Assembly: GCF_030684315.1 (NCBI RefSeq)
Contig: NC_081367.1
Location: 31,850,792 to 31,914,791 of the forward strand
Source of the DNA: Stegostoma tigrinum
Lineage: Eukaryota
Reading direction: 5' to 3'
DNA: 64,000 bases
Shown: in pieces, positions 9,711 to 61,516 of the stretch
How positions within the stretch are numbered: position 1 is the first letter of the stretch
Layout of the letters: every line of letters starts with the position of its first letter
Translations under genes and position numbers: made by a program
The notes under the pieces: generated by a model
What the model was told of the DNA's origin: nothing
Databases searched by the model: none
Seen by the model: the letters and a program-made list of their open reading frames with translations, nothing else

Positions 9711-9799
9711 ATCCTGAGACGCTGCTTGGCCTGCTGTGTTCATCCAGCTCCACACTTTGTCATCTCAGATTTTCCAGCATCTGCCATTCCCATTATCTC
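9711..9799 (+). mobile_element. 89-bp Penelope-like 3'-terminal fragment
   Basis: Matches the last about 90 nt of the 47.7-kb copy; TGGCCATTC repeated at 9702-9710 and 9800-9808. Confidence 0.88.
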
Positions 9800-11788: not shown

Positions 11789-11816
11789 GACGTTTCGGGC
11801 CTAGACCCTTCATCAG
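11789..11816 (-). ncRNA. Minimal hammerhead ribozyme motif (intact core), left arm of the palindrome
   Basis: Reverse complement reads CTGATGAAGGGTCTAGGCCCGAAACGTC. Confidence 0.78.
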
Positions 11817-12549
11817 AGAGGGGGATGGGGTGAGGGTTCTGGAATAAATAGGGAGAGAGGGGGAGGCGGACCGAAGATGGAGAGAAAAGAAGATAGGTGG
11901 AGAGAGTATAGGTGGGAGGTAGGGAGGGGATAGGTCAGTCCAGGGAAGACGGACAGGTCAAGGGGGTGGGATGAGGTTAGTAGGTAGATGGGGGTGTGGC
12001 TTGGGGTGGGAGGAAGGGATGGGTGAGAGGAAGAACAGGTTAGGGAGGCAGAGACAGGTTGGACTGGTTTTGGGATGCAGTGGGTGGAGGGGAAGAATTG
12101 GGCTGGTTGTGTGGTGCAGTGGGGGGAGGGGACGAACTGGGCTGGTTTAGGGATGCGGTGGGGGAAGGGGAGATTTTGAAACTGTTTCAAAATCTCCCCT
12201 TCCCCCACCGCATCCCTAAACCAGCCCAGTTCGTCCCCTCCCCCAACTGCACCACACAACCAGCCCAATTCTTCCCCTCCACCCACTGCATCCCAAAACC
12301 AGTCCAACCTGTCTCTGCCTCCCTAACCTGTTCTTCCTCTCACCCATCCCTTCCTCCCACCCCAAGCCACACCCCCATCTACCTACTAACCTCATCCCAC
12401 CCCCTTGACCTGTCTGTCTTCCCTGGACTCACCTATCCCCTCCCTACCTCCCACCTATACTCTCTCCACCTATCTTCTTTTCTCTCCATCTTCGGTCCGC
12501 CTCCCCCTCTCTCCCTATTTATTCCAGAACCCTCACCCCATCCCCCTCT

Positions 12550-12577
12550 CTGATGAAGGGTCTAGGCCCGAAACATC
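12550..12577 (+). ncRNA. Minimal hammerhead ribozyme motif, right arm of the palindrome (GAAACATC variant)
   Basis: CTGATGAAGGGTCTAGGCCCGAAACATC; a CpG-type transition breaks the ACGT palindrome. Confidence 0.65.
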
Positions 12578-13592
12578 AGCTTTTGTGCTCCTGAGATGCT
12601 GCTTGGCCTGCTGTGTTCATCCAGCCTCACATTTTATTATACTATGATGGGAGTTGACAGGGAATTAAAATGAGTGAGCATAGAATGCGTCTTCTGGACA
12701 ACATAAGCTGAGAACAGATGAGGGAAGAGAAATTTAAAAAAGAGCTTGGGCAGGGAAAATCCACAGGAAAGGTTTAGCCTAGCGAACAAGGGAAATGGGT
12801 GGGATACAGCAGGACTAGTTGAATGATAATGAAATCCATGAGCTCTTCACATAGACCAGAGATGGGAATGGAGAGGCTGGGAAAGAGAAGTTGAAGAAGA
12901 TGCATGATAATTGAGCAAAGCAGACACAATACTTCTTTTGCATTCCAGGAGGACTCAGAAATACAGAGCAATTTTAACAGAGATCATTCGTGCTTGAATT
13001 ACAAAACAGCATCACTTCAATTGGGTCTTATGGTGCAGAGTTGCACAGTCCTGAACAGAGGTGACCAATGAAATCCAGGAAGTTAGATTTAGTACAGTTC
13101 ATGCTAAATTGTCAACCTTTTGTTGTGTGGGTTTACAAAATATGGCATTTCACAATTCAAAGACCCTTTGGATACTTTTGTCAAGATTATAGTGCCATGA
13201 CTTCTCTTAACATTGATCGGAATGGGTGAGACAGCTTAATGTTTCATCATTCAAAATCCATCCATTTACACAGGGTTAAAATCACACCTATTATAGCCTG
13301 ATTATCTTTAGAATACAGTTCTTCGCAAGGTGAATTAAATAATTCTGAATTTTGTCAGGTACGTAAGTAGAATCAAATACGTTGAAAGTAATTATCAACT
13401 ATAAGCCTTTAACAAACTGTTATTGTATTTCAAGTTCTTCAGGTGTCAATATAAGCTCTGGCAGCTTACCTAAAACGCAATCTTCACCGTGGTTAATCGT
13501 GACCGAACCATGCATTTCACTGCCAGTCACCTGCCGAAGCAAAGAAAGTTCAAAACAAAACCATGATTCAGGAATATTGTCTCCTGTGAGTA

Positions 13593-13793
13593 TCAGAAAT
13601 AATGGGAACTGCAGATGCTGGAGAACCCAAGATAACAAAGTGTGAAGCTGGATGAACACAGCAGGCCAAGCAGCATCTCAGGAGCACAAAAGCTAATGTT
13701 TCTGATGAAGGGTCTAGGCCCGAAATGTCAGCTTTTGTGCTCCTGAGATGCTGCTTGGCCTGCTGTGTTCATCCAGCCTCACATTTTGTTATC
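13593..13793. mobile_element. Miniature palindromic Penelope-like insertion with a hammerhead core in the loop
   Basis: About 74-bp inverted arms (13629-13702 / 13722-13795); TTGTCTCCTGTGAGTA repeated at 13577-13592 and 13794-13809. Confidence 0.92.
13702..13729 (+). ncRNA. Hammerhead ribozyme motif (GAAATGTC variant)
   Basis: CTGATGAAGGGTCTAGGCCCGAAATGTC. Confidence 0.62.
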
Positions 13794-13954
13794 TTGTCTC
13801 CTGTGAGTAGTTGCCTTCTCATGTAGATATACTGTTCCTTCTTCCTGTTTATTTGATCAACAACGGAAAGGCCAAGAGTAAAAAGTAAGATTTGTTGAGT
13901 GGTTTTGCAGTGAGAATTAGGAGAAAAAATACATCAACCCATGTGGTCCACAAG

Positions 13955-14280
13955 GAGGAGTGGTGACTCAGTGGTTAGCACTGCTGCCTCACAGTACCAG
14001 GGACCTGACTTCGATTCCACCCTCAGGTGGTTGTCTATGTGGAATTTGCACATTCTGCACGCTTCCTCATGGGTTTCCTCTAGGTGCTCTAGTTTCATCC
14101 CACAGTTCAAAGATGTGCAGGCTAGGTGGATTGGCCATGCTAAATTGCCCATAATGTTCAGGGATGTGTAGATTAGGTGGGTTATGTGAGATTGGGCTGG
14201 GGGGGATACTCTGAGGGTCAGTGCAGACTTGTTGGGCCAAATGGCCTTCCCCTACACTGTAGGCATTATATGATCTATGA
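13955..14280 (+). mobile_element. HE1-like tRNA-derived SINE
   Basis: A box GTGACTCAGTGGTTAGC, B box CTTCGATTCC, core TTTGCACATTCT...GATTGGCCATGCTAAATTGCCC, CR1-like tail. Confidence 0.88.
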
Positions 14281-15776
14281 AGAAGGCCTTGTTCCAGGAC
14301 AAGCAAAGGTCAACATGGTCTGATATGAAACTCTGAGCCTCATGAGGTGTTGTTACGTAAGCTAAGGGAATGATGTCATGGTTTCAGAAATATAGTCATT
14401 TATGCAATGTGAAGAGGATGAGCATTAAGCATAGGTTGTCCTTTGTTGGCCTGCTCTTTAGGGATAAAGGCTATATCTAAAGCCTCATTATTGTGACAGA
14501 AAATAAGTGGCTACTTTCTGTAAAGTGTCCTTTGCTCAAGCAGAGTTCAAAGATTTCTAGGATTCCAAATTAGGCAATCAAATTCTGGTACGCAGTGCAC
14601 AGTCTGCATAAAAATTGTCTGACTTTGCTGATAAGGAGAGCTTGATTCTATGGCAAAATGTATCAGTACTACAAGTACTTGTTTCATGGTACTCTGAGAG
14701 CACTAGAGGCGTGCATGATGGGTTAAACACACGGTGAACACTAAATTCATAATGAGCTGAGCCAGTGACTTACATGCAGGTTTCCAATCCTTTTTTCCAC
14801 ACTGGTCTACAACTGTGAGCATCTTAAGCACACTGAAGGACTAGATTCTGTTCTCAATCTTCTGAGGAAACACCCCGAACTGCACTGAGGCAAGCTGTGC
14901 ATCTACTCTCATATTGGTGGCATCCATGTATGTATTTGTACGTTCACACATAAATGCTCATATGCAAATGCCTTCCTTTAAGCAACCAACAAAAAGCAGT
15001 TCAAATCTATCGTTCATAATGCCTCTCAGACTCAAAAACCAAAAGAAAACTTTGATTGAAATTTCTTTTAGCATGCATTTAAAACGCATAAATGTATTTT
15101 ACTATTAAAGAGCTTATATACATGTACTAGTCCTCTCTCTCAAAACATTAGTTCCCATTTTCACCGACTTGAAATTACAGTTTCATATTCTTCATTTCAG
15201 TTTTTTAAATTGGATTCCACATTTACTTCTTGCTTGTAATGGACCATCATAAGTCAGATCTCAATCCAGTAGGTTCGGTTTTAGTACTAACAGCCAGTGA
15301 AACACATCTTATAGAGTCATATATTCATACAGCATGGAAACACCCCCTTCAGTCAAACTAGTTCATTGACAACCATAACCCCAAACTAAACTAGTCCCAC
15401 CTGCCTGCATTTGGCCCATATCCCTCCAAACAGTTTTATTCATACTCTTATCTAAATGTCTTTTAAACATTGTAGCTGTACTTGCTTCCATTCTACTGCA
15501 GCTTTTCTTTTCAAAGTTCCTATAAATTCTGAATTTTTGAGTATCTCTGCCTATTTTATGCCAATTTTTTTCAAATCTAATTTTGTCATCTTCCATTTCA
15601 CCCTTTTGGCTTTTATACAGAATAATAATGCTGACCTAGGAGCTATTCTTTAGGCAAGATTAGTAATGTTTTGCAAGGTTTACTTGTAATGTAAGAACTT
15701 TGTTGTTTGAAGTAGAAGAAATTTGCATTTTTATCCAATTAGCATTGCTAAATTGTAAACATAAAAGGAACTTGTT

Positions 15777-16815
15777 AGATAACAAGGTGTAGAGCTGGAT
15801 GAACACAGCAGGCCAAGCAGCATCAGAGGAGCAGGAAAGCTGGTGTTTTGGGACTCTTCTTCAGAAATGGAGGAGGGGAAGGGAATTCTGAAATAAATAG
15901 AGATAGAAGGGGAGGTGAATGTAAGATGGATAAAGGAACAGATAATGTCAAGAGGAGACAGACTGGTCAAAGAGGCGGGCATGGACCCAGTAAAGGTGAG
16001 TGTAGGTGAGGAGTTAGGGTGGGGTTGATCAGTCCAGGGAAGATGGACAGGTCAAGGGGGCAGGGATGAGGCTGGTAGGTAGGATGTTGGGGGGTAGTGG
16101 GGGTGGTAGGAGTGGATAGGTGGGAGAAAATCAGGCAGGTTAGGCTGGCGGAGACAAACTGGGCTGGCTTTGGGATGTGATCAGAGATAATGGGAACTGC
16201 AGATGCTGGAGAATCCAAGAAAACAAAGTGTGGGGCTGGATGAACACAGCAGGCCAAGCAGCATCTTAGGGGCACAAAAGCTGACGCTTCGGGCCTAGAC
16301 CTTTCATCAGAGAGGGGGATGAGGAGAGGATTCTGAAATAAATAGGGAGAAAGGCGGGGGGGCGGACCGAAGATGGATAGAGGAGAAGATAGGTGGAGAG
16401 GAGAGTATGGGTGGGGAGGTAGGGAGGGGATAGATCAGTCCCGGGAGTACAGACAGGTCAAGGGGGGGGGGGGGGGGGGGGCGGGATGAAGTTGGTAGGT
16501 AGGAAATGGAGGTGCAGCTTGAGGTGGGAGGAGGGGGTAGGTGAGAGGAAGAACAGGTTAGGCAGACGGGGATGAGCTGGGCTGGTTTTGGGATGCAGTG
16601 GGGGAAGGGGAGATTTTGAAGCTGGTGAAATCCACATTGATACCACTGGGCTGCAGGGTTCCCACGCGGAATATGAGTAGCTGTTCCTGTAACCTACGGG
16701 TGGCATCATTATGGCACTGCAGGAGGCCCAGGGTGGAGATGTTGTCTAAGGAATGGGAGGGGGAGTTGAAATGGTTTTGGGATGTGGTTTGGGGAGGGGA
16801 GATTTTGAGTCTTGA
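15777..16815 (-). mobile_element. Older Penelope-like pLTR fragment interrupted by a younger Penelope-like copy (16180-16775)
   Basis: Two pLTR 3' ends (about 15777 and 16181); TTTGGGATGTG repeated at 16169-16179 and 16776-16786; hammerhead variants at about 15843-15864 and 16283-16310. Confidence 0.88.
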
Positions 16816-22079: not shown

Positions 22080-24520
22080 TTTATTTATTCAAGTAATGTG
22101 GGCATTCTAAGTGACCTTGAGGAGGCAATGGTAAGCTGCCAAAAGATTGAAGCCCTTGACAAGATACGATGAAACAATCACACTGTTGTTAGGAAGGAAT
22201 TTGCAGGAGTTTGGCCAAGCAACAAATAAGGAACAGTGTTAAAGTTCCAACTCAGGGTAGTATGTTTCCTGGAAGGGAACTTGTAAATGGTGTGCTCCCC
22301 TGTATTTGCTTCCCTTTACCTTCACGGAGGTAGAAGATGTGAATTTGGAAGTTGTTGTTGAAGGAATCTTGGTGCGTTGTTGCAATGCACCTTGTAAATG
22401 GTACACATTGCTACCAGTAAGCATCGCTGGTGGAGTGAGTGAATGTTGAAGGTGATGGATGGGGTGTTTTTTTCCTAGATGGTGTCAAACTTCCTGAGTG
22501 CTGTTGGAGCTGCATTCAGGCAAGTGTTGCACCTTCCATCTTGATTTGTGCCTTGTAGACGGTGAACTCGCTTTGAAGAATCTGGAGATGAATTAGATTA
22601 GATTCCCTAAAGAGTGGAAATAGGCCCTTTGGCCCAACAAGTCCACACTACCCCTTGGAGCATCCCACCCAGACCATCCCCCTATAACCCACAAACCCCT
22701 GAACACTACGGGCAATTTAGCATGGCCGACCCACCTAGCCTGCACACCTTAGAAATGTGGGAGGAAACTGGAGCACCTGAAGGAAACCCACGCAGACTCG
22801 GGGAGAATGTGCAACTTCACACAGACAGTTACCCAAGGCTGGAATCGAACCCGGGTCCCTGGTGCTGTGAGGCTGCAGTGCTAACCACTGAGCCACCGTG
22901 CCGCCCTAAAATTATCTGCCACAGAGTTCCCAGACCCTGATCTGTCCTTGTATCCACAATATTTACATGCTGGCCCAGCTTGGTTTCTGGTCAATGGTAG
23001 CTACCAGCATGTGAATAGTTGGAGAATCAAGTAACAATGATTGGAACCTCTCCTGCTAGAGATGTCTTTGTCTAGCATCTGTGTAGTATAATGTTACTTG
23101 CTACTTATCAGCCCAAGCCTAAATGTTGCCCAGGTCTTGCTGCATTGAACATTGTCTGTTTCAGTGTGGGAAGTCTGGAATAATGCTGAACATTGTGCAA
23201 TCATCATTGAACATCCCCACTTCTGACCTTATGATGGAGGGAAGGTCAATGAATCAGCTGAAGACAGTTGGGCTTAGGACACTACCTTGAGGAACTACTG
23301 ACGTGTAGTACTTAGATCGAGATGTTTGATGCAATTACAATAACCACTTTCCTTTTGCTAGGTATAATTCCAAACAGTGGAGGTTTTCCTTCTTCATTCT
23401 CATTGATTTCAATTTTCCCAGGGCCCCTTCTCACCCAGTCAATACTGCATTGATGTTAAGGACAGTCAACCTTCCTGCCCCTCTCGAGTCAATTCTTTTT
23501 TGTCCATATTTGAAACAAGACTGTATTGCCGTCACAAGCAGAGCAAACATAGAGAAATCCAAATAGAGCTTCAATGCGTAGATTGTTGTTAAGTAAGTGC
23601 TGCTTCATAGCACTGTCAATGACATCTTATGTTACTTTGCTAGTGACTGAGGTTAGGGTGATGGGGTGGTAATTGGTTGGTTTGCTTTTGGCATACTTTT
23701 GAGGACAGGACATACTTGGGCTTTTTCCCTCATTGCTACATAGATCCTAGTGTTGTAACCACATCAGAACAGGTTGGCTTAGGTATGCCAATCCTGGACC
23801 ATTATTCTTCTGCACTATTGCTGTAATGGTGATAGGGCCCACAGCCTTTTCAGTATCCAGTGTCTTCAGCCATTCTTGGTATCAAGTGGAGTGTATCAAA
23901 TTGGTTGAGGAATGGCATCTGTGATGATGGAGAACCCCAGAGGAGTTTGAGATGGATCATCCACACAGCAAATCTGGCGAAGTTACCTGAAAATGTTTTT
24001 ACCTCATCAATTGCAACGAAATGCTATGCAACCCTTTCACTGAGGATGAAATATTTGTGAAGTCTCCTCTACCAGTGAATTATTTTAATTGACTTCATTG
24101 GCAGTTTGTTAGGACTGCAAAGCTTCAATCTGAAATGTTAGGTGTGGAATTGCTTAGCTCTGTCAATGACTTGCTGCTTATGATTCTTGGAATGCAATTA
24201 ATCCTGCATTGTAGCTTCATCAGGTTGATATCTAAGTTTTAGATTGATGCTTAATGCTGCTGCTGGCATGACCTCCTGCCTTTGTGACTAGGTTAGAGTT
24301 GATTCTCTAGTTTAGTGCTATTGCTAGAGTCAGATTAAAGATTGCCATTGAGTAAAATTCTGCTGTTGATGGCACAGCATCTAATCTGGAGTTGTGACAT
24401 TGGTTCAAAATTTTTCCCATTCAGCATATCAGTAATGCCACACAAATTGATGGAGAGATCCTCAATACGAAGGTGGGACTTCATCTCCACAACATTCTGA
24501 CCAACACTTCCAATGACAAA
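22080..24520 (-). mobile_element. Long decayed non-LTR retrotransposon remnant (clade not resolved)
   Basis: Pieces of related sequence recur on the + strand at about 2250-2430, 4100-4790, 5885-6330, 9340-9970 and 51480-52250; no intact ORF. Confidence 0.5.
22591..22906 (-). mobile_element. HE1-like SINE (well preserved)
   Basis: Reverse complement GGCGGCACGGTGGCTCAGTGGTTAGC...GGGTTCGATTCC; (TCTAA)n tail; AATTA on both sides. Confidence 0.92.
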
Positions 24521-25159: not shown

Positions 25160-25488
25160 ACTTGGGGCAGCACAGTGGCCCAGTGGTTAACACTGCTGTC
25201 TCATAGCACCAAGGACAAAGGTTCAATTCCACCCTTGGGCGACTGTCTGTGTGGAGTGTGTACATTCCCCCCAAGTCTGCGTGGGTTTCGTCTGGGTGCT
25301 CCAGTTTCCTCCACGGTCCAAAGAAGTGCAGGCCAGGTAGATTGGCCATGCTAAATTCCCCACAGTGTTTAGGGATGCATAGATTAGGTGGGTTATAGGC
25401 GGATGGGTCTGGGTGAGATGATAGAGAGTCAGTGTGGACTTATTGGGCCAAAGGGCCTGTTTTCACACTATAGAGAATTCTATGATCT
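25160..25488 (+). mobile_element. HE1-like SINE
   Basis: GTGGCCCAGTGGTTAAC / GGTTCAATTCC boxes and the conserved core. Confidence 0.88.
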
Positions 25489-25942
25489 GTTAAGTTGAGT
25501 GGTTAAGGAAGGGAATCCTGCTAGGTATTAAATAAAGACAAAGGCTTACTTATAGGAGCACTCTTGTTCCTCTTGACCCAAAAGACAGACTTCAAACACA
25601 TTTAATATCAGCTTATCTTGGTTTCTTCTGGCCAAGGGGGAGGTTCCAGAAGACCGAAGGGTAGCTAATTTGGTGCCATTATTTAAGAAAGGTGGTAAGG
25701 AAAAACCAGGGAACTATAGACTAGCGAGCCTGACATCAGTAGTGGCCAAGTTGTTGGAGGAGAGTCTGAAGGACAGGATTTACATGCATTTAGAAAGGCA
25801 AGGATTAAGGATGGTCAACATGGCTTTGTGCATGGGAAATCTAGTCTCGCTGACTTGATTGGCTTTTTTGAAGATTTAACAAAGAGGATTGATGAAGGCA
25901 GAGTGGTGGACATTGTCTATATGGGCTTCAGTAAGGCATTTA

Positions 25943-26934
25943 TGTTGCGAAGTTGCAAAGTATTTATAGATTGGAAGGCAGGAAGTTATAATTTGTTGGT
26001 AAAAATGACAGTAGGGAAAAGCAGTGTTGGGGTCCCTTCAACTGATTTGTGTTTTGTCTGTGCATAGAAATTTTTAAAATGTAGGCATATGAGTAACTGG
26101 AGGGTGCAATAACAGAAAGTACTTCAAATAAAAACATTTGTAGCAAAAGGGCCTTGCGGGTGAAAGGCAAAGCCTCAGAATTGTTTGACATTTTGATGAC
26201 AAGTTCAAATTGAGTCAATCAACAAAGCCCTTAGAAACTAAAAATCTATCAAATTTAAACCTGATTGCATTGACAGCCTGAACCCAATAACATTGTGAGA
26301 ATTTGTTGCATCATCGGTGATATTTAAGAAAGTGTTTTTGAAAATTTGCAGAGAGAGTCAACTTTCATAAGACAATACCCTTTAGTTTCAGAGAAAGCCC
26401 ATCTGATTATAGTGTACCATGGTAGTTTAGCTAAAGGCCCTCACAGAAGCAATCATAGAAAGTCATCTGTAAAGGAAGGTCATCCTGAGAAAGGCTGGAA
26501 AAAGCAGGAGGTGCCAAACGACAGTCTCTGTGATTTTGGAGTGATTAAATTTTAATTTATTTTGTTCTTATCAATTGGATTTATTAAGCGTAACTTGTTC
26601 ATTTGAACAGTATTCCAGCAGAATTTGGTTTAATTAGGGAGTAGTTAGTATAAGGCGGGGGGGGGGGGGGGCGCAATTATTCAGTTTGTTAGTATGTCTT
26701 TTAATTTGTTCACTGTTAAGTTTAAATACATAAATTGTTACACATAATTTAAAAAATGGATCAGGGATTTCCTTTCCTTTAACCATTAATTTAACATATT
26801 ACAAGGGGAAAGGCGAGCTTCTTTGAATGTTTTGAGGGTACCTGTTAGAAGGGAACCTCCACTCCTGTAATAACAGATTGGGGTTTGTGTAGGTTTAAAT
26901 ATCAGAGGAGTTCGGGCATTCCCCCTCCTTAACA
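25943..26934. mobile_element. Putative solo LTR (about 990 bp)
   Basis: TGTT...AACA termini; flanked by TTTA/TTTG (4-bp TSD with 1 mismatch); cleanly interrupts the CR1 SKAF|DxVP motif; non-coding. Confidence 0.72.
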
Positions 26935-27192
26935 TTTGACAATGTTCCAATGCAACGAGAACTAGCCAGTTGGACACAAAATTGGCTCGAAGGTAGGAGA
27001 CAGAGGGTGGTAGTGAAGGGATGCTTTTCAGACCAGAAGCCTGTGACCAGTGGAGTGCCGCTGAGATCAATGCTGGGGCCATTGCTTTTTGTCATCTATA
27101 TAAATGATTTGGATGTGAATACAGGAGGTGTGGTTAGTAAATTTGCAGATGACACTAAAATTGATGGTGTCCTGGACAGTGAAGAAGGTTAC

Positions 27193-29474
27193 ATAGAACA
27201 TAGAACATTACAGCACAGTACAGGCCCTTCGGCCCGCGATGTTGTGCCGACCTGTCATACCAATCTGAAGCCCATCTAACCTACACTATTCCATGTACGT
27301 CCATATGCTTGTCCAATGACGACTTAAATATACTTAAAGTTGGCGAATCTACTATCGTTGCTGGCAAAGCGTTCCATTCCCTGACTACTCCCTGAGTAAA
27401 GAAACTACCTCTGACATCTGTCCGATACCTCTCAGCCCTCAATTTAAAGCTATGCCCCCTCGTGCTCGCCGTCACCATCCTAGGAAAAAGGCTCTCCCTA
27501 TCCACCCTATCTAACCCTCTGATTATTTTATATGTCTCAATTAAGTCACCTCTCAACCTTCTTCTCTCTAACGAAAACAGCCTCAAGCCCCTCAGCCTTT
27601 CCTCGTAAGACCTTCCCTCCATACCAGGCAACATCCTAGTAAATCTCCTCTGCACCCTTTCCAAAGCTTCCACATCCTTCTTATAATGCGGTGACCAGAA
27701 CTGTACGCAGTACTCCAAGTGCAGCCGCACCAGAGTTTTGTACAGCTGCAGCATAACCTCTTGGTTCCGGAACTCGATCCCTCTATTAATAAAAGCTAAA
27801 ACACTGTATGCCTTCTTAACAGCCCTGTCAACCAGGGTGGTAACTTGCAAGGATCTGTGTACATGGACACCGAGATCTCTCTGCTCATCTACACTACCAA
27901 GAATCTTTCCATTAGCCCAGTACTTTGCCTTCCGGTTACTCCTACCAAAGTGTATCACCTCACACTGGTCCGCATTAAACTCCATTTGCCACCTCTCAGC
28001 CCAGCTCTGCCGCTTTTCTATGTCTCTCTGTAACCTACAGCATCCTTCATCACTATCCACAACTCCACCAACCTTAGTGTCGTCTGCAAATTTATTAACC
28101 CATCCTTCTACGCCCTCATCCAGGTCATTTATAAAAATGACAAACAGCAGTGGACCCAACACCGAACCTTGCAGTACACCACTAGTAACTGGTCTCCAGG
28201 ATGAACATTTCCCATCAACTACCACCCTCTGTCTTCTTTCAGCAAGCCAATTTCTGATCCAAACTGCTATATCTCCCACAATCCCATTCCTCCGCATTTT
28301 GTACAATAGTCTACTGTGGGGAACCTTATCGAACGCCTTGCTGAAATCCATATACACCACATCAACCGGTTTACTCTAATCTACCTGTTTGCTCACCTTC
28401 TCAAAGAACTCAATGAGGTTTGTGAGGCACGACCTACCCTTCACAAAACCATGCTGACTATCCCTAATCAAATTATTCTTTTCTAGATGATTATAAATCC
28501 TATCTCTTATGAGCCTTTTCCAGCACTTTACCAACAATTGAGGTAAGACTCACTGGTCTGTAATTACCAGGGTAGTCTCTACTCCCCATCTTGGACAGGG
28601 GAACCACATTTGCTATCCTCCAGTCGTCTGGCCCTATTCCTGTAGACAATGACGAGTTAAAGATCAATGCCAAAGGCTCGGCAATCTCCTCCCTGGCTTC
28701 CCAGAGGATCCTAGGATAAATCCCATCCGTCCCAGGGGACTTAGCTATCTTCACACTCTGTAGGATTTCTAATACCTCTTCCTTGTGAACCTCAATCCCA
28801 CCCAGTCTAGTAGCCTGTATCTCAGTATTCTCCTTGACAACATTGTCGTTTTCTAGAGTGAATACTGTCGAAAAATATTCATTTAGTGCTTCCCCTATCT
28901 CCTCTGACTCCGCACACAGTTTCCCACTACTATCCTTGATTGGCCCTAATCTTACTCTCATCATTCTTTTATTCCTTAAATACCTATAGAAAACCTTAGT
29001 GTTTACCCTGATCCTATCCACCAACAAATTCACGTGTCTCCTCCTGGCTCTTCTGAGCTCTCTCTTTAGGTCTTTACTGGCTACCTTGTAACCCTCCAGT
29101 GCCCTAGCCGAGCCTTCACATCTCATCCTAACATAAGCCTTCTTTTTCCTCTTGACCAGAGGTTTCACTTCTTTCATAAGCCATGGCTCCCGCACTCTAC
29201 AGCTTCCTCCCTGCCTGACAGGTACATACTTATCTAGGACACATAGGAGCTTTTCCTTGAATAAGCTCCACATTTCTAATGTGCCCATCCCCTGCAGTTT
29301 CCTTCCCCATCCTATGCTCCATAAATCTTGTCTAATCTCATCGTAATTGCCTTTTCCCCAGCTATAACTCTTGCCCAGTGGTATACACTTATCACTTTCC
29401 ATCACTAAAGTAAACATAACAGAATTGTGATCACAATCACCAAAATAACAGAATTGTGATCGCTATCACCAAAA
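27193..29474 (-). mobile_element. Young 5'-truncated CR1/HER1-like LINE (reverse transcriptase)
   Basis: ORFs 28500..29417 (KSPGTDGIYPRIL, NYRPVSLTS) and 27281..28360 (YMDFSKAFDKV, QGSVLGPLLF, KFADDTK); one frameshift and one stop lie between them; (TTCTATG)n 3' tail at about 27193-27208. Confidence 0.96.
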
Positions 29475-36262: not shown

Positions 36263-37257
36263 GTAGGGAATACTTTATTTAATTACTAACCCATAGCTGG
36301 TCCATTTATTCAGGTTTAAACATCTCCTCTTTCATAGCTCCAGTACTTATGTGGAAATATCTGAGGATTTTTGTTACCTGTTCTACGTGTTGCTATTATA
36401 TGAATTTTTTTTTCTGTTTCTGGCTCCCTTTTTATTTTGCCCTGCTGTTAACCTTTAGTCATTTTATGTATGGGGCAGAAAGGTCAAAGAAGTCCTGAGG
36501 GTGTCTGCTTCTTGACTTGATGAAATCCACCATCTCCGTTTCCAAATGCATGGAATCACATGCTAGATATCTCCAATTGCACACTATTGATGCAATACTT
36601 AGTGCTTCCCTGGGTGAACATGCAGCACGATTGTGTTCTGTCCACTGACAATTCCATGATTGTTTGGAACTGCCTAGTTAGCAGTGATAACCAAAATGCA
36701 ATTTTACATAACATACTTACACTTTTAGATATTTATCAGTGGTGATTTACTTCTGGTGAGGGATGGTTACATTTATCCTGGGCTTGGCCTGGATAAATTT
36801 GTACAGGCCTCTGATTTAAATTACTTCAATCACTAGCTTTGCCTTTAAGACATTTTGAATATTACTGGCATCTCAACAGTCATCCTCAATCCTGTAGAAA
36901 TTGCATGCATTGTTAACCACAGGAGCTTCTATCAGAATTATTTCAAATATCTTCCAATTGCTTTGTCTACGTTCGGGATAAACCTTCTTCACAAACCTCT
37001 TTGTTTCACTTCTGTGTCATGTGCTAATGTTCTTTACTGAAAAGCTATCCATTCTGGTTTCAGTTAAAAAAGAGCAAACGATTTAATTGCCCTAACCTTA
37101 GTGCCTTGAACTTACAATTTTTCTATTTCTGCATTTACCTCAATCTTTTGTCATTGAGAAATTTAAGCTACTATTGCCTTGATTACTCAAATTTACAGAC
37201 AGTTTGGCAGTCTTTCAGATTCAAACTGAAAATGATATGTTTATTCTGTTTCTGCAG

Positions 37258-37455
37258 ATGTAAAGAACTTAATCTCAATAAGAATCATTTAACGTCTTTT
37301 GAACAACTGCCGAAAATTCCCCAAATTCAACATTTATCAGTAACTGAAAACAACATAGTGACATTAAGAGGACTCAGCAAACTAAGAGAAACACCAATAG
37401 AATCACTAACTTTGAAAAGGAACCCTTGTCAATTTCAGGATAAGTACAGACCCAA
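37258..37455 (+). CDS. Uncharacterised LRR protein exon with three LRRs, [65 protein letters not shown]
   Basis: tttctgcag acceptor, gtacat donor; phase 2-2; SDS22-like LRRs followed by NPC...YR, the start of an LRRcap. Confidence 0.88.
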
Positions 37456-38696
37456 GTACATGCAATTTAATTTTTCTTCAAAAATCTTAATTCTAAATAT
37501 TCAATCACTCTTTGTTTAAATGTGAGGGTCATTTTTAAATTATGATTGTGCAGAAACCTCTAACACAATAATTGTCAAAGTTTGGGGAAATATTACAAAT
37601 TATTGCCAATAATTGTCTTCCAAATCTACACATCACATGAAGCAAGTTAAAAAGAAAGCAGAAAACGTGTTGAATTTGAAGTGTTCAGAAACACCATGTA
37701 GAATTTTGGTTCATGATTATAATGCAGTTTCTTTTGTTTTAGAAGCTATTTAAGACAACATGCGCTCTCAGATCATGCTGTTCAACTGCATCTCCATGTA
37801 TCAATATGTCATCCATATGACGTATGGCACCATAAAGATCTTTAAAAAATATTTTACAAAGTCTATTGATAAATCTCTGAAATAAGACAATCTTGAATGG
37901 TAATCTGTTCAACTAAGTTTCCCAAATGGAGTTAAGAATACAGTAAGCAATCTCGATTGCTCATCCAGTGGCATCTGTGGAATCCACGATTTGCATGTCG
38001 TTTTGTGAAAATTCAGGGTTTGGATAGTTTAAGTAAATTGTTTTCAACCATATACATAGGATGGATTCTCTCATCATCATCTTGTTGAGCTGTGTAAAGT
38101 CAACAAAAATTCCAATAGCGCAATTAATCTTAGAAACAGTAATAATGCTCAGCTACCGTTAGTTTGGATTTGTGACTAGGGAAATGATGCCTATCCTTGT
38201 TATTTCTGGAAGTTGTTTCTGAACTTGCTTTGTTAAGACAGGTAGAATCTTCCTGGGTATGCTGTTATATAAGGATTTAGAGCCTTTCTTCAGAGTAGTG
38301 CTGCGTTCAGTATGCAGGTTTCATTACATTTTAAATAAACTCTTAAACAACTTTTACTGTTTGACCTCTTCCACAATTTGATTAAGATTGAAGTTAAGGC
38401 ATGTATTCCGACTCCGGAATGAGAATTCTTGATTGAGAACTAAGTGTAGGTTTTCTACAATTTAGTATCCCCTATATGAGAAAGTTTTTTGTAGCATACC
38501 ATTCACCTTGAGAGTTATACCTTCTAGACCACATGGTTGCAATGCTATTAGCTGTACAATGTTTCTTTAACCTAAATGATAATATTGTGACATTTGACCC
38601 ATTGTCTAACATAAAAATTATGTGATGACCATTGACATGAATGTCAGCTTACCTAAACGTGAAGTCTGGAACACCTATTTTTCCCAGGAACATTTT

Positions 38697-39048
38697 GTGG
38701 GGTGGCACAATTGTTCAGTGATTAGCACCGCTGCCTCACAGCAGCGGGGTTCGATTCCACACTTGGGCGACTGTCTGTGTGGAATTTGCACATTCTCTCT
38801 GTGTCTGCATTGGTTCCCTTTAGGTGCTCTAGTTTCCTCCAACAGTCCGTAGATGTACAGGCTAAGTGGATAGGCCATGTTAATTTCTCCATTGTGTTCA
38901 GGGATGTGCAGGCCAGATGGATTACCCATGGGAATGCAGGGTTACAGGGTTGGGAGTGGTTGGGGAATCTGAGTGGGATGGTCTTTGGAGTGCTGATGTG
39001 GACTTAATGGGTCAAATGGCATACTTCCATAATGTAGAGATTCTATGG
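38697..39048 (+). mobile_element. HE1-like SINE in the LRR-gene intron
   Basis: A/B boxes (GGGGTTCGATTCC) and the conserved core. Confidence 0.85.
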
Positions 39049-45899: not shown

Positions 45900-47702
45900 T
45901 CCAATTTAATTTCAAATATGACTTTGTCCAAAGTTTGTGTTTGAAGAAATAACTGTCACAGATTACAAAATCGTTGCAACCGTTCCAAGCTTCTTAATTC
46001 ATCACACAGAAAGAATCTAAAGTCCCTCCAATTCAGTGTCAAATTGTTTCTCAAAAGATTCCGAGTCATTTGACACTACTGTGGAATTATCTAGGTGATC
46101 AAATTTGCACACAGGACCTGAGGTGCAATCTACCCAGAACATTCAATCCAATCATGACTTCTTCTGACTAGTTTTGTTGCCTTAAGGGTGTGCAGTTCAC
46201 ACGATTTACTGGCTAATTTAATTGCATTCTGCATTGATTAAGCATGTGGGTTTATTAAACAGAGGATAGTAATGGATATGTTATTGGAATAGTCATCCAG
46301 AGGTCTCGACTAACAATGTAATGTCATTTCAAATTCATTTAAGATTTTCAAATTGGGTTGAAATAAATGAAAATTCCAACATTACATTCTTTGGCGAACT
46401 ATGGGTGGGAATAATATAGCACCAGCCTTGACAGCAATTCAAAGTGAATTGTGAAGCCCACTTAACCTTATGGATGTCTTTCAACCTGATTCCAAGCATT
46501 TTTAGAAACATTTATTGGCAGGATGTCTTTATTTTTCATGTAATCATACCAGTATTGCATTAATACACAATTAAATCAGCCCATTTTCTGCCCACATAAA
46601 TTGCCCACATTATTGTGAGTTTTGAACTTCCTCCTCTGATTAATTATTATAAAAGCAATAGAAATTGAGTAATGCTACTTTGCTATTGCATTTAAGACCA
46701 ATACATATTGTTATGATCCCAGCTGATGGTGGCACTTGTCAAGCAGATACAAACATATGAACTAGGAGCTGAAGTGTACCATTTGACCCCTTGAACTGGC
46801 TTCGCCATGCAATAAGATAATGGCCGATCTATTTGTGCTCTGAATTCTGTACTCTTGTTTACCCCAATAATCTTCTCTTGCGTAAAAAGGATCAATCCAT
46901 CCCTGACTCAAGAACATTCAGTGACCCTGCTTTCACTGCATTCTGAGGAAGAAAGTTCCAAAGTTGCACAACTCTGAGAGAAACAAAAATTATCTTCATC
47001 TCTGTCCTAAAAGATCAAATCCTAATTTTAAAAATGTCATCTAGTTCTGGGCTCACCTAGAAAAGGACAGATCCTTTCCACATCACCTTGTCAAGACCAT
47101 GCAAAATTTTATATTATTCAACTAAGTGTATCGCTTTGCTACATTCCAATGGAAACATTAGTTTGCCAAACCTATTGTCATTAGAAAACCTGCTCATTCT
47201 GGGTAGTAATCTCTTCTGAACAGTCTCCAACACATTTATCTCCTTCCTTAAATAAGATGACCTAACTGCACACTGTTTTTGAGTTGTGATCTCACTAATA
47301 CCATGTACAAGTAAAGTATAAAATCCTTATTGTTATGTTCAATTTTCATAATAAAGAATAGCATCCCATTAGTCTTTCTGATAACATGTAATGTCTATGA
47401 ACTAACTTTTTGTGACTCATGCTTCAAAACACCTCGGTCATTCTGCATCACAGATTTCTGCAGTTGTCCTCCATTTATGTAATACAATGTTTTTTCATTC
47501 TTTGTACCAAAGTGAATGCTCCATCTGCCAAGGTTTTGACTACTCATTCAACCTATCTATCTACAAACTCTTCTTAACAAACTTTCCTACCTATTTTTGT
47601 GACTTCTGTATTGTGTGTTGATGAATATTGTAAAATTTGAGGTCCCAGCAGAGATTCCTGCAGAACTCCGCTTGCCACATTCTGACAAATCAGACTAATG
47701 CC

Positions 47703-48688
47703 CCCACCCCTGTCTGCTTTCCGGAGAGACCACTCTCTCCGTGACTCCCTTGTTCGCTCCACACTGCCCTCCAACCCCACCACACCCGGCACCTTCCCCT
47801 GCAACCGCAGGAAATGCTACACTTGTCCCCACACCTCCTCCCTCACCCCCATCCCAGGCCCCAAGATGACATTCCACATTAAGCAGAGGTTCACCTGCAC
47901 ATCTGCCAATGTGGTATACTGCATCCACTGTACCCGGTGCGGCTTTCTCTACACTGGGGAAACCAAGCGGAGGCTTGGGGACCGCTTTGCAGAACACCTC
48001 CGCTCAGTTCGCAACAAACAACTGCACCTCCCAGTCGCAAACCATTTCCACTCCCCCTCCCATTCTCTTGATGACATGTCCATCATGGGCCTCCTGCACT
48101 GCCACAATGATGCCACCCGAAGGTTGCAGGAACAGCAACTCATATTCCGCCTGGGAACCCTGCAGCCATATGGTATCAATGTGGACTTCACCAGTTTCAA
48201 AATCTCCCCTTCCCCCACTGCATCCCTCAACCAGCCCAGTTCATCCCCTCCCCCCACTGCACCACACAACCAGCCCAGCTCTTCCCCCCCACCCACTGCA
48301 TCCCAAAACCAGTCCAACCTGTCTCTGCCTCCCTAACCGGTTCTTCCTCTCACCCATCCCTTCCTCCCACCCCAAGCCGCACCCCCAGCTACCTACTAAC
48401 CTCATCCCACCTCCTTGACCTGTCCGTCTTCCCTGGACTGACCTATCCCCTCCCTACCTCCCCACCTACACCCTCTCCACCTATCTTCTTTACTCTCCAT
48501 CTTCGGTCCGCCTCCCCCTCTCTCCCTATTTATTCCAGTTCCCTCCCCCCATCCCCCTCTCTGATGAAGGGTCTAGGCCCGAAACGTCAGCTTTTGTGCT
48601 CCTGAGATGCTGCTTGGCCTGCTGTGTTCATCCAGCCTCACATTTTATTATCTTGGAATCTCCAGCATCTGCAGTTCCCATTATCTCT
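47703..48688 (+). mobile_element. Penelope-like element (Neptune-type), 5'-truncated: GIY-YIG endonuclease plus 3' pLTR
   Basis: ORF 47698..48336 has the Cys-rich linker CNRRKCYTCPH and NVVYCIHC..CGFLYTGETKRRLGDRFAEH; CTAATGCC repeated at 47695-47702 and 48687-48694 (TSD); inserted into an older minus-strand CR1. Confidence 0.93.
48561..48588 (+). ncRNA. Minimal hammerhead ribozyme motif in the Penelope pLTR (intact core)
   Basis: CTGATGA-A-GGGT(CTAG)GCCC-GAAACGTC: both core boxes, stem II, palindromic ACGT stem III and a GUC cleavage triplet; stem I is short. Confidence 0.8.
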
Positions 48689-50762
48689 AATGCCTTTTCT
48701 CTGTTTCCTGTCAGCCAGCCAATCTTCTATCCATGTTAATATATTACCTGCTACACCATGAACTATTATTTTCTTCAATAACTTCTGATGAACTATCTTA
48801 TCAAATGCCTTTTGGAAATCAAATTCCAGTTAGTCTACTTGATTTCCTTTAGCCACAGCATTTGTTACTCATTCAAAAAAGTCTAATAAATTGGTTAAAC
48901 ACAAATTGCCCTTCACAGAACCATTCTTCCTGATTACCTCGGGTTCTTCTAAATTGTCTTTTAAGGTCCTAGATTGAAATTTGCCTTGATAGATTATAAG
49001 TTGAATTTTTCTTCTTTGTTTACTATGGAGATCTGATACTGAATATAAGTCACAAGAATATGGTAATGCACTTTCAATGAAAGAATATAAGTTTGTTACC
49101 AATAAAAACAATGTTACATGATACAAGAACTATTGGAATAATCTCACAACAAATATCAGAGAAGACATAAATATCCTTGTGTGTACTTAAATGTCAATGA
49201 AGAGCCATTCCAATCTCCACATTAAAGACTGTTTTGTTGGCACAGTTGTAATTGGCCTCCTTTCAGCAAATTCTATGTTTTCACTCGACACTATTTTCTT
49301 CAGTTAATGTCTCACCCAAACAGCCTTAAAACTAGCTGCTGACTTTGTTTATTACTGATTATTGTGGGTTCCTTAAACACATCTTCATCAGCTATAAAGG
49401 ATTTTTTTTAAATTTTCTATCTCACACCTCCACAACCTAATGGTTCTGGACCCTTCCTTTCACAGACTCCTAATCAACTCAAGACTTGTTAGCTTTGACT
49501 GATTAGTGGGTGCAACTAACAGCATCTCTACTATTATTGACCTTTTCTATTTCTGTGAAATTAATTCTGTCCCCACAAGCTCTTTCTAGTTATAAAACAC
49601 ATGCAAGCAAATATCTAGCAGTTAACTCTCCAGATGGCTCGCTAATTATTTATCTTAAATTAAACCATTTCTTCATAATGCTTTTTGAACTCACTGTCCA
49701 AAGTGACTTTATGACCTTTCAAACAACTTCATACAATGGGAGGCTAAATCCATCTTTATCCACAATAACAATAATGTATTATGACTCCTCATCACAATAT
49801 GCCAATAAATTCATGGTGAAACCAATTTTCATTAATATTCCATGACAAATGGCTTTTATCACTGCACAATGAAAAGTGTTAAACATCAAGTATGGATCCA
49901 ATTGTTAACCTTTCATTCCTCCATATTTTTAGTAACATAAGTTGACTTTAAGTCATTTTTCCACTAACCGTATAGAATTTGACCTGTATTGGATTATGTC
50001 TAACATGTTTCTTTGTGGAAAAGACAGTGGTTGAATGCAGAGAGGATTCTGAAACTGCCTATGGCATGCAAAGGAAACTGAATTGAAGTTGACCAAAATT
50101 ATGCAACCCAGAACAACTGTAAATATAATGGGCATTTCTAGAGTTAAGAAAGGTAACATTTAACTTTCATCATTGTACAGAAATATCATTCTGGTGGGTT
50201 AGTCAGCATTATACATCCTGCTGACTTTCCTCTCTATTGAAATCCATGTAAAATGGGCAGTTTATACATTACCGATATCTTACAACCAACCAAAATTTAA
50301 TTTCATCATCTTAGACTCCAATACAATTGGACGGAAATCCAATTGAAGGAATTCAAATATAAAGTGAGCTCAGAGACGGACGTTGAAGGAATTTGGCCAG
50401 GACAGAAAGGTTAGTCATGGGATAGGACTGAGGAGCTGAAGGTGCAAGGACAGGAGGGGAAACATGAAAACATCAGTGAAAAAGATGTAATGACAGTTTG
50501 TCTGTAATTTGTTTTTAAAAATTGAACAAAAGTACTGAACTAGTTAATGCAATTATATTTATAATCAAGATGGGAATATAAATGTATTATGTTGATTAAA
50601 ATTTTCATTCTTACTTTTTTTAATTTACTTGGCCTTCACAGTCTCCGTATTAATTTATAGATTTGAGTGTGATTCTATTGACTATATATACTATATGAAG
50701 CTTGAAGTTAGTTATCAACCAGTGTCCTGAAGCAAAAATATAAGTAACACACTGAGTTTACT

Positions 50763-53938: not shown

Positions 53939-54338
53939 CTGGGAAGGAAAACTGATAAGTAATAACTAAGAAAAAGCATCGCACTGCAAGTTAATCCAAA
54001 CGCTTTGTAGAGATTTTTAGAGGTATACTAGCACAGCGATTGGGGACAAAATACTCCTGATTAACCATGCAGAAAATATGAGCTAGCGTTTCTCCTACTG
54101 TTTAAATAATTCTGATTTTGTGTGCCAAGTTACTGCAGTCTTGAAGAGATGTGTTTCATCATATCACCTATACAGCCAAAAAATGATAGCATTTACTGCA
54201 AAGGTAGTATATTCCAGAAGCAGGTAGAACCATGTCTCAGTATGAATTGTATTATCTCCATTCTCATCACATTATCTGCTTGTCCTTCATTTAAATTGTT
54301 GTGGCGAACAAACTACGTTAAAAGAAAGCAGAGTTTAC

Positions 54339-54607
54339 CTGTATTTTCCATAATTCCTCTGTCTCTGGTGCAATTCTCCAGTATGTATCATCCATCATTG
54401 CAATCAACAGATTTAGCAGCAGGAGATATACAAACAGCATAAACATGACATAGGCAATATAGATGTTGTTGGGAGTGGGCTTGTTATAAGGAAGAGGAAT
54501 ATCCATCAATCCCATCATCAGCTCAAATATGGTGCGCAATGTCATTGAAAAATCCCTAAAATATGGATAATCTGCCAAATTCAGAGTCTGAAACATCAGG
54601 TAAAATG
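54339..54607 (-). CDS. TRPV6: TRPV5/6-like exon (pore helix, selectivity filter, S6, TRP box)
   Basis: ttctag / gtaaac splice sites; 269 nt, phase 1-0; AFYLMFQT...TIFELMMGLMDIP...LLNLLIAMMDDTYWRIA...EELWKIQ (ORF 54318..54680). Confidence 0.96.
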
Positions 54608-55214
54608 CTAGAAGAAAGAAATGAAACCCAAAGTCATTTGAAAAAGTATGGAGCGTATCAATTAAAACTTCCACAAGCATTGCAGTATCCTAAAAGTTAT
54701 TTTATTTATTCTTTTAGAACTGTGTATTGATTGCAGTAAGATATACCGAGGATCAACATTAATTAAAACTAGACTCAGATTACTTTGTCATGTACGTACC
54801 TAAAGTCAAAGTACTGATGATAGTAACTAACATCACATCATGTATATTTTAACATTTCAAGCAAAGATTCAAGAAAAAAATTAGTGGGAACATAAAAATA
54901 CACAATGGAAAATAGTTTATTATCAAAATTGGTTCAGGAGAGCAAGTGCTCCTCCCATCTCCACAATGTGGCTATGAGAGCATTATAATGAGCAAGCATT
55001 GGAGATGTGCATCTAAATCTGCAACTAAAATGACTATTCTTTTTAAATACAGAAGGTTGATGTACAGAGGAGCATTCATTCTCCTATTCTAAACTACTTC
55101 TTCACCAGCAGCAAAACTTTAACTTATAAAGCTAGACCAAAACATTTTCTCGCTGATATACTATTTTTATTAGAAAAAGTTACAAATGGATATTTATTCA
55201 GATGAAACACATAC

Positions 55215-59131: not shown

Positions 59132-59443
59132 GAATAGAATAGAATCTCTACAGTGTGGAAACAGGCCTCTTGGCCCAACAAGTCCACACCAACCCTCAGA
59201 GGTTCTCACCCAGACCCATTCCCCCATAGCCCACCTAATCTGCACAACCCTGAACACTATGGGTGATTTAGCATGGCCAATCCACCTAGCCTGTACATCT
59301 TTGGACTGTGGGAGGAAACCAGAGCACCTGGAGGAAACCCATACAGACATAGGGAGAATGTGCAAACTCCAAAAAGGCAGTCACCCAAGGGTCCCTGGTG
59401 CTGTGAGGCAGCAATGCAAACCACTGAGCCACCGTGCACTATC
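59132..59443 (-). mobile_element. HE1-like SINE in a TRPV intron
   Basis: Reverse complement GCACGGTGGCTCAGTGG...; (ATTCT)n tail; B-box region partly deleted. Confidence 0.87.
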
Positions 59444-59688: not shown

Positions 59689-61516
59689 TTCTTTAGGTAT
59701 ATAAAGGGCACAAGAGAAGCAAAAGTGGATATTAGACCACTGGAAAATGACAGTGGAGAGATGGTAGTGAGGAACAAGGAAATGGCTGAGGAACTGAATA
59801 ATTACTTTGTGTCAGTCTTCACGGTGAAAGACATGAGTGGAATCCTGAAAAATTGAGAGAGTCTGGGAGCAGAGCTGAGTATAGAGGCTATCACAAGAGA
59901 AAAAGTGCCAGTAAAACTGATTGGCCTGAAGGTGGTGGAATCACCTGGGCTAGATGGACTACACCCCAGAGTTCTAAACGAGATAGCTGAAGAGATAATG
60001 GAAGCGTTAGTGGTGATCTTTCAGGAATAAGCTACAGTCACGGAGGGTCACAGACAACTGGAATATCGCTAATGTGACACTCCTGTTTAAAAAGGGAGTA
60101 AGACAAAAGGTAGAAAATTAAAGGCCAATTAGCCTAACTTCAGTCATGGGTAAGATCTGAGTCCATTGTAAAGACGAGATTTCTGAATATTTGGAAATGT
60201 ATAGTAAAATAGGGCAAAATCAGCATCGTTTCATCGAGGGGAGGTCATGCCTGACAAATCTGTTAGAATTCTTTGAGGAAGTAATGAGCAGGGTGGACTA
60301 AGAACAGCCAATGGATGTTATCTACCTGGACTTCAAGAAGGCCTTTGATAAGGTGCCGCACATGAGGCTGCTGAGTAAGATAAGGGCCCATGGTGTTAGA
60401 GGCAAGGTGCTAGCATGGATAGATGATTGGCTGTCTGGCAGAAAGCAGAGAATGAGGATAAAGGGGTCTTTCTCAGGATGGCAGCCAGTGACAAGTGGTG
60501 TTCTGCAAGGTTCAATGTTGGGACCACAAATTTTCACTTTGTACATTAATGATCTAGATGAAGGAACTGTGGGCATTCTGGCTAAGTTTGCAGATGATAC
60601 AAAGATAGGTGGAGGGTCAGGTAGTATTGAGGAGGTGGTGAGGCTGCAGAAGGATTTGGACAGGTTAGGAGAGTGGGCAAAGAAGTGGCAGATGGAGTAC
60701 AACATGGCAAAGTGTGAGGACTTCACTTTGGTAAGAAGAATAAAAATGTGGACTATTTTCTAAATGGGGAGAAAATTCAGAAGTCTGAAGTGCAAAGAAG
60801 CTTAGGAGTTCTAGTCCAGGATTCTCTGAAGGTAAACTTACAGGTTGAGTCAGTAGTCAGGAAGGCAAGTGAAATGTTGGCATTCATTTTAAAATGACTT
60901 GAATATAAAAGCAGGGAGGTACTACTGAGGCTTTATGAGGCTGTGGTCAGGCCACATTTAGAGTATTGTATGCAGTTTTGGGCCCCATATCTCAGGAAGG
61001 GTGTACTAGCTATGGAGTGGGTTCGGACGAGATTCACAAGAATGGTCCCAGGAATAGAAAGCTTAATATATGAGGCACGTTTGAGGACTCTGGATCTATA
61101 CTCATTGGAGGTTAGAAGGATGAGGAGAGATCTAATTGAAACTTTTAGAATCATGAATGGTCTGAACAAAATGGATGTTGGAACTTGCCTCCATTGGTAG
61201 GAGAGTCTACGACCCGAGGACACAGCCTTAGAGTAAAGGGAAGACCTTTTAGAACTGAGATAAGCAGAAACTTCTACAGCCAGAGAGTAGTGAATTTATT
61301 GAATTTACTGACACAGAAGGCTGTGGAGGCCAGGTCAGTGAGTATATTTAAGATTGAGATAGATAAGTTCTTGATTATCAAGGGGATCCAGGGTTACGGG
61401 GACACAGCAGGAGAATGGGGCTGAGGAACTTATCAGCCATGATTGAATGGTGGAGCAGACTCGATGGGCCAAACCGCCTAATTTTTTCTCCTATGTGTTA
61501 TGGTCTTACGGTCTTA
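59689..61516 (+). mobile_element. 5'-truncated CR1 LINE in a TRPV intron (antisense to the gene)
   Basis: ORFs 60311, 60943 and 61185 (YLDFKKAFDKV, KFADDTK, VRPHLEYC) with frameshifts; TATGGTCT-like tail. Confidence 0.94.

Follow-up and report, generated by a model that had tools for sequence, protein, structure and literature searches.

A minimal hammerhead motif and copy ends in a young Penelope-like retroelement family of Stegostoma tigrinum

Does a hammerhead ribozyme motif that recurs in the DNA of S. tigrinum cut the RNA from which its retroelement is copied? Minimal hammerheads (min-HHRs) in the pseudo-LTRs (pLTRs) of metazoan Penelope-like elements (PLEs) were described by Cervera and De la Pena in 2014 (PMC4209133). 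Our analysis bears on cutting by PLE hammerheads in vivo and on pLTR regeneration (PMC4209133, PMC11167929, PMC2377424). With more than 200,000 recent copy ends and many intact elements, the genomic sequence by itself lets template ends be placed at single-base resolution. The starting point was a sequence-only reading of 64,000 nt of contig NC_081367.1 (hereafter the window), which proposed a recently active, self-cleaving family.

The motif, its fold and its covariation

The motif CTGATGA-A-GGGT(CTAG)GCCC-GAAACGTC sits at 48561-48588 (+) and an identical copy at 11789-11816 (-); both read as first described, and only these two are intact. All eight sites behind the original count of at least eight copies are real, as judged by a 30-nt pattern search, BLAST and alignment. 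With up to three mismatches, the 30-nt pattern has six matches in the 64-kb window and none in 100 shuffles; BLAST and alignment recovered two decayed copies besides, one at 9137 and one near 15850, and two more arms lack a complete hammerhead motif (9712-9801, and 13589-13702 on the minus strand). In the alignment, the helix III palindrome is broken in the variants at 12550 and 3263 and retained through wobble pairs at 13702; the variant at 16283 has lost G10.1 and A15.1, and those at 9137 and 15850 are damaged in the core or helix II. Features are collected in Table 1; relative positions are counted from the predicted cut, with 0 at 48589.

Table 1. Features of the hammerhead-bearing family in the window
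Feature	Position	Strand	Basis or remark
5'-truncated young-subfamily copy, 3' 990 nt of unit	47702-48691	+	99.6% identical to locus L085
8-bp target-site duplication CTAATGCC	47695-47702 and 48687-48694	+	Flanks of the 47702-48691 copy
ORF end: CX4CxxC finger and GIY-YIG with CCHH, stop 48334-48336	47704-48336	+	ORF list, motifs
TATA-like box TATTTATT, 62 nt before predicted cut	48527-48534	+	Sequence; putative promoter role
Putative RNA start (-33/-32), edge where short copies end	48556-48557	+	5'-end pile-up
Predicted minimal type I hammerhead	48559-48590	+	Sequence; descriptor features from available parts of PMC4209133
Helix I	48559-60 paired with 48589-90	+	Sequence and natural-motif alignment
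CUGAUGA box; bulged A	48561-67; 48568	+	Sequence
Helix II	48569-72 paired with 48577-80	+	Sequence
GAA; palindromic ACGU; C17	48581-83; 48584-87; 48588	+	Sequence
Predicted cut	48588/48589	+	Hammerhead descriptor
Two 3'-end sites (+62..+67, about +100) with tail of about 35 nt between	48651-48689	+	3'-end histogram, junctions
Head-to-head pair: 11692-12184 (-), 12184-12640 (+)	11692-12640		14-bp target-site duplication
Hammerheads of that pair	11789-11816 (intact), 12550-12577		Alignment
Mini head-to-head insertion, plus arm from -29, minus arm from -8	13589-13796		16-bp target-site duplication
Older short copy, hammerhead 3263-3290	3199-3373	-	Pattern search
Old copy, endonuclease remnant, decayed hammerhead 9137	8262-9237	+	ORF list, alignment
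Short copy from +11, without hammerhead	9712-9801	+	Alignment
Old copy, decayed hammerhead near 15850	15777-16177	-	Alignment
Copy of intermediate age; hammerhead 16283-16310 altered at two core positions	16180-16777	-	Alignment

In common with the min-HHRs of PMC4209133, the motif has CUGANGA and GAAA boxes, an unpaired base between 9 and 10.1, G10.1-C11.1, a palindromic 15.2-16.2, no loop 3 and a short helix I. Helix II measures 4 bp here versus 7-8 bp in the Schistosoma min-HHR, and helix I measures 2 bp here and in D. virilis versus the usual 4-5 bp (PMC4209133). The extra A and the 2-bp helix I, which had been singled out as notable, are both present; together with a loopless palindromic helix III they are already described in the available text of that paper, and this kind of system is already known. 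It was also correct that the ACGU of helix III can close only between two copies. The suggested comparison with the hammerhead models of Rfam went the other way, with no match at the gathering score or at E <=10 on 48400-48750; matches to RMST_8 (E 1.6) and Ysr141 (E 2.4) are at chance level and were discarded.

The first alternative to weigh is that the hammerhead likeness is a coincidence, with the motif riding along in a young repeat. The missing Rfam match fits this, as do folding z-scores near zero and the conservation within the family of the flanks 0..+14, which equals that of the core (203 of 208 spanning copies usable). Subfamily changes within the family touch N7, loop II and one U.G pair that becomes U-A. 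On the other side, every min-HHR hallmark is present, the motif lies in the pLTR as in other PLEs, and the helices covary between families. A relaxed hammerhead pattern has 4,403 matches in the genome, those among the 100 listed being mostly point mutants; from these 100 and a descriptor scan of fetched loci we recognized at least three other repeat families with minimal hammerheads. We aligned 17 natural motifs, seven from this family and ten from the others. The selection of rows partly fixed the core and helix II, so that G10.1-C11.1 in 16 of 17 (G.U in one) and A15.1-U16.1 in 17 of 17 are to be read with this in mind; helix I played no part in it. One helix I pair is kept in 17 of 17 motifs and the other in 16 of 17, through swaps between C-G, U-A and U.G and between U-A and A-U, while pairs 3 and 4 are present in just 8 and 7 of the 17. 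Covariation is 0.443, compared with 0.221 after shuffling and no more than 0.117 when the partners are slid, and compensatory changes across the four families occur in both helices I and II, the two stems that the sequence-only reading had proposed to test for covariation. Judged on these alignments the hammerhead fold appears to be under selection, and the chance reading, largely refuted by the four-family covariation, is highly improbable.

The minimum-energy fold of the motif is a different structure, a CUGAUG/CGUCAG hairpin at -11.4 kcal/mol. We rejected it as a conserved structure: it has no compensatory change and breaks in the sister families, where two positions are unpaired in 7 and 9 of the 17 motifs. 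In silico, with the tertiary contacts of the core not counted, the active double hammerhead reaches -5.5 kcal/mol versus -39.8 for the inactive dimer, so that unaided cutting should be poor. The epithet 'self-cleaving' goes further than these results: the in silico energies strongly favour inactive folds over the active dimer, and most copies appear to come from RNA uncut at this place. A palindromic loop II as a dedicated dimerization signal was dropped, as the loops of older copies are not palindromic.

The element, its protein and its age

The unit is 3.6-3.7 kb long and has a single ORF of about 1,090 aa with reverse transcriptase (RT) and GIY-YIG domains. In full elements a hammerhead lies 166 nt upstream of the ATG and another 224 nt downstream of the stop; since the hammerhead sits in the pLTR, each full element has one on each side of its ORF. 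The sequence runs unbroken from 3' end through tail and 5' UTR to the ATG at +138. Forty loci, chosen for long frames among genomic matches to the N-terminal part of the protein, contained 31 full-length units; upstream of 23 of these stands a 3' end of the element itself that extends past -27. One locus (L085) is a tandem of two full units, and pLTRs arising from partial tandems are thus present. In loci L022, L024 and L025 an in-frame repeat of variable length, (T/V)ADGTPP, lies before the RT and is the source of much of the variation in unit length.

A frame of 1,091 aa has YIDD at 695, a linker finger CNRRKCYTC at 914, YCIHCTRCGFLYIG at 953, a DKG motif, CxxC between the GIY and YIG boxes and a CCHH motif. 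Pfam matches of the full frame (RVT_1, E 6.6e-5; GIY-YIG, E 0.004) are below the curated cut-offs, and so is that of the ORF end in the window (GIY-YIG, E 0.00097). The pattern of DKG, CX2-5CxxC linker and CCHH belongs to the Neptune and Nematis clades, and a CX2-5CxxC finger between RT and endonuclease is absent in Penelope/Poseidon, according to the available parts of PMC8557442. By its motifs the element would be a Neptune-type, endonuclease-positive PLE; Nematis has the linker finger too, and of the clades with this finger we prefer Neptune as the one reported from vertebrates. Its closest database proteins are gene models of carpet sharks, 92-93% identical over the endonuclease and 80% over the RT. 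Hallmarks, protein and architecture together bear out the proposal of a minimal type I hammerhead in a Penelope-like family: as far as sequence can tell, this is a genuine minimal type I hammerhead motif in the pLTR of a PLE.

Amplification of the family is very recent and has produced at least 10^5 ends. The exact 31-mer of the hammerhead occurs 89,060 times in the 3.2-Gb genome (control, 0) and an exact downstream 28-mer 229,059 times. A protein query with the endonuclease end gave 253,887 first-look candidates in the genome, and all 150 scored were 99-100% identical; an N-terminal query gave 3,575 candidates, with about 90 of 150 scored lying in open frames of at least 1,000 aa (hand count). 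Divergence between full-length units has a median of 1.29% and a minimum of 0.19% (45 pairs, 10 units). The claim of recent activity is therefore well founded on exact-copy counts, open frames and this median. In the window the family occupies 4,462 of 64,000 nt (7%). The hammerhead had been placed about 100 nt before the 3' end of the element; this is true of copies with the tail but not of the remaining ones, which end at about +65. At 3378-3452 (-), directly 5' of the 3199-3373 copy and in matching orientation, lie 75 nt from the beginning of the ORF (+140..+214, 96%), likely the product of a template jump. An expansion of Penelope-like elements is mentioned in the available part of a preprint on the whale shark (10.1101/443036).

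Copy ends and the state of the template

For the 5' ends we sampled the first 100 plus-strand matches of the downstream motif, all within the first 2.5 Mb of one contig; an earlier end histogram was not used for counting, 30 of its loci having been chosen for an intact hammerhead. The 3'-end histogram has clusters at +62..+67 and +97..+107. A head-to-head partner lies at most 140 nt away in 43 of the 100 copies, and in 36 of 38 head-to-head pairs exactly one arm is tailed and the other is not. We propose that the arms differ by the tail because initiation falls at +65 on one strand and at +100 on the other.

Most sampled copies are short: in 69 of 100 the 5' end lies 3' of -40, and an inverted partner accompanies 42 of these 69. 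The 5' ends pile up at an edge, with 25 of 57 copies at risk ending in -35..-27 (0.049 per nt) versus 2 of 32 in -60..-36 (0.0025 per nt); when partner and neighbouring arms are included, 52 of 92 end in -35..-26. The edge is present in tailed (17/73) and untailed (35/88) arms, and being common to both it is set by position and not by length; a fixed-length stall from the initiation site was rejected, as the edge is unmoved by the presence of a tail. It lies about 4 nt before the core and 30 nt behind the TATA-like box, and 27 non-inverted ends also fall there. Full-length units differ in this respect, since on the second pass none of 23 ends in -35..-27 (versus the 25 of 57 above, Fisher p 3e-5; two pairs of these units share one insertion), so their template would be endless at the edge.

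The edge may lie in a promoter. A TATTTAT box begins at -62/-63 in four of six natural copies, from three subfamilies, and has one substitution in the other two. The A at position -32 belongs to CCATTTC in older copies and to TCAGTTC in the sister families, and we take both to fit the initiator consensus. Four bases starting at -32 can pair as a 4-bp helix I in one of the sister families, with two or three of these pairs present in L114, L156 and L158. TATA and initiator motifs have been described in a rotifer pLTR (PMC3846280); a point against the promoter reading is the internal, TATA-less promoter of D. virilis Penelope (PMC2377424), both according to the available parts of these papers.

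The edge and the second-pass contrast suggest a capped RNA that starts at the ribozyme, plus an endless template, circular or tandem. The account we favour, and hold to be moderately probable, combines a start just before the ribozyme, run-off, an endless template for long copies and occasional protein-aided cutting, all four steps being read from end distributions and motifs. Directed by the TATA-like box at -62, Pol II would begin transcription at about -32; with only four bases ahead of CUGAUGA in the RNA, helix I would be limited to 2-4 bp. The element's protein would nick both DNA strands, and reverse transcription would start inside the RNA, at +65 and +100, in the manner demonstrated in vitro with the anole element (PMC11167929). 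On a linear RNA the enzyme would run off the 5' end after 100-130 nt, giving the roughly 70% of short copies, which, solo or palindromic, would end at -32 or just 3' of it. For long and tandem copies the template would lack an end there, being either circular or a tandem RNA made by read-through. The hammerhead would normally be folded off, CUGAUG pairing with CGUCAG, and would cut rarely, as a protein-assisted dimer.

Run-off competes with stalling as the source of the edge. Both the edge and the ends at the cut could be places where an RT that is not yet processive pauses, at the hairpin foot (+2), after the top strand (-29) or in a C-rich tract, with arms then joined by microhomology at AGCT, TCAGA/TCTGA or GAGAG/CTCTC; the hammerhead would then serve as a conserved fold for protein binding, with cutting in vivo rare or absent. 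Such pausing is in keeping with the hairpin as the minimum-energy fold, with the use of short palindromes at many junctions and with the lack of an excess of cap-derived G before non-inverted ends at -26..-37 (7/27). In the anole element, moreover, catalytic mutants left insertion unchanged and no RNA reads ended at the cut (PMC11167929, available parts). Against stalling speak the hairpin's lack of compensatory change and its disruption in sister families, several copies of which, by eye, also seem to begin a few bases before the core; the non-inverted ends at the same edge; the full-length copies, which read through it; and the retention of the catalytic core and helix I across families. On balance we regard stalling as rather unlikely.

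Short copies might instead be a SINE-like non-autonomous derivative, in which solo pLTRs that keep their TATA box serve as masters for RNAs from -32 mobilized in trans, the full element having nothing special at -32. The share of copies ending 3' of -40 and the full-length units without an edge would follow, and rotifer solo pLTRs are mobilized in trans (PMC3846280, in the part available). Short copies, though, match one autonomous subfamily after another in their diagnostic bases, and solo 3' copies, which end at +65/+100, lack the downstream RNA that the anole protein requires (PMC11167929, available text), which leaves this derivation quite unlikely.

The favoured account, a start before the ribozyme with occasional cutting, also leaves room for a trace of cleavage at position 0. 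Ten of 161 arms (8 junctions) end exactly there, compared with 0, 1 and 0 at -1, -2 and -3 and 1, 2 and 2 at +1, +2 and +3 (Poisson p 2e-5 to 2e-3 for the 8 junctions). Genome-wide, 791 fold-backs are centred on AGCT just after the cut versus 50 on ACGT 5 nt upstream, a control that sits inside a stem and contains a mutable CpG; the 100-locus sample has three fold-backs where fewer than one is predicted from 791 of 229,059. Three of the 8 junctions at 0 are AGCT fold-backs and one uses AGCT microhomology, and two arms stalled at the hairpin foot (+2) would produce an identical join at 0. Among 204 incidental copies, many of them long elements, 2 of 189 ends fall at 0..+3, and none of 24 full-length units ends there. 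As a trace of cleavage the peak is suggestive only; the few copies that end at the cut may derive from cleaved RNAs.

A bolder reading, which we consider unlikely, takes the genome to record three states of the template: capped 4 nt before the hammerhead, cut after C17, and cut and ligated into a circle. The capped leader would be the 5' strand of helix I, so that cutting would decap the mRNA, and the circle, a model proposed in the available text of PMC4209133, would yield the long and tandem copies. If true, it would provide in vivo evidence for cutting and circularization of the template by minimal PLE hammerheads and account for the regeneration of pLTRs. The family as a whole lends itself to sharp predictions: a capped start at -32, a cut at 0 and no end on the second pass.

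Known systems and other repeats

The comparisons below are with the available parts of each paper. The shark family shares with other PLEs one motif per pLTR and mostly scattered single copies from truncated elements (PMC4209133). Its at least 89,060 identical motifs stand against heterogeneous sets of about 4,000 in coelacanth and about 9,000 in Xenopus (PMC4209133), and may be the largest vertebrate set of identical hammerhead motifs among the figures compared (4,000-14,255); sharks are not named in the main text of that paper as available. As in Neptune (summarized by Craig et al. 2021, PMC8557442), the RT is followed by a C-terminal GIY-YIG with CCHH, a CX2-5CxxC linker finger and DKG, and there are partial tandems, an inverted 5'-truncated arm and a 30-40-bp tail at one end. 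PAc of Anolis carolinensis (Frangieh et al. 2024, PMC11167929) likewise has a hammerhead within the pLTR, and its tail is delimited by two neighbouring internal initiation sites, with both strands extended. In PAc, a Poseidon-type element, ribozyme and start codon overlap, whereas the cut here is 138 nt before the ATG and initiation, unlike in PAc, falls in the 5' UTR (PMC11167929). With this element, the one PLE purified, cleavage needed protein and insertion did not need cleavage (PMC11167929), a further reason for reserve about the epithet 'self-cleaving'.

Non-LTR retrozymes are similar in being short, pLTR-derived copies that bear hammerheads, and are reported in one chondrichthyan (Li et al. 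bioRxiv 10.64898/2026.07.22.740005). They form head-to-tail arrays, whereas the copies here are solo or head-to-head with target-site duplications, alongside an intact coding element (10.64898/2026.07.22.740005). None of the nine tandem rows in the window contains the hammerhead motif, and a three-unit 367-nt tandem was found in one of 40 long loci. In this one (L096:5376-6140), three units of pLTR and ORF start follow one another head to tail inside an insertion; every unit has its hammerhead, and the array is retrozyme-like. Two hammerheads 59 nt apart occur at G000:C1:2722793.

In the open-access literature covered, including the available text of the retrozyme preprint, the ribozyme of this family and copy ends marking a start before a PLE hammerhead are unreported; the available text of PMC12602865 has nothing on hammerheads or pLTRs. 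The present analysis adds the contrast between short copies and full-length units on the second pass, the covariation of helix I and the counts of fold-backs.

The hammerheads of the other families have a helix II of 5-6 bp, a different N7 and bulge base, and a GUU or GUC triplet. They lie at L108:5861-5900, L114:1254-1293, L156:1155-1194, L158:460-499, L052:2118-2161, L060:250-293 and L073:6401-6444, and in L211-L213, where no ORF remnant was found beside the three motifs. From 3' similarity only, these three would be linked to PLEs.

The window holds further repeats. Broken LINE reverse-transcriptase frames, presumably CR1-like, lie at 26899-29462 (-) and 60302-61295 (RVT_1 E 3.6e-18). Another dispersed repeat of about 300 nt, which we take to resemble a shark SINE, has copies 72-82% alike at 6424-6585, 13962-14282, 22594-22909, 25163-25494, 38698-38949 and 59134-59437. 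Direct-repeat pairs of about 246 nt at 19228-19473/21296-21541 (90%, about 2.1 kb apart) and 43723-43969/46055-46301 (97%, about 2.3 kb) are either LTR-like pairs or local duplications. An ion-channel pore segment, presumably TRPV-like, at 54318-54689 (-) (Ion_trans E 1.4e-6) and, on the opposite strand, a leucine-rich repeat at 37028-37519 (+) are probable host exons.
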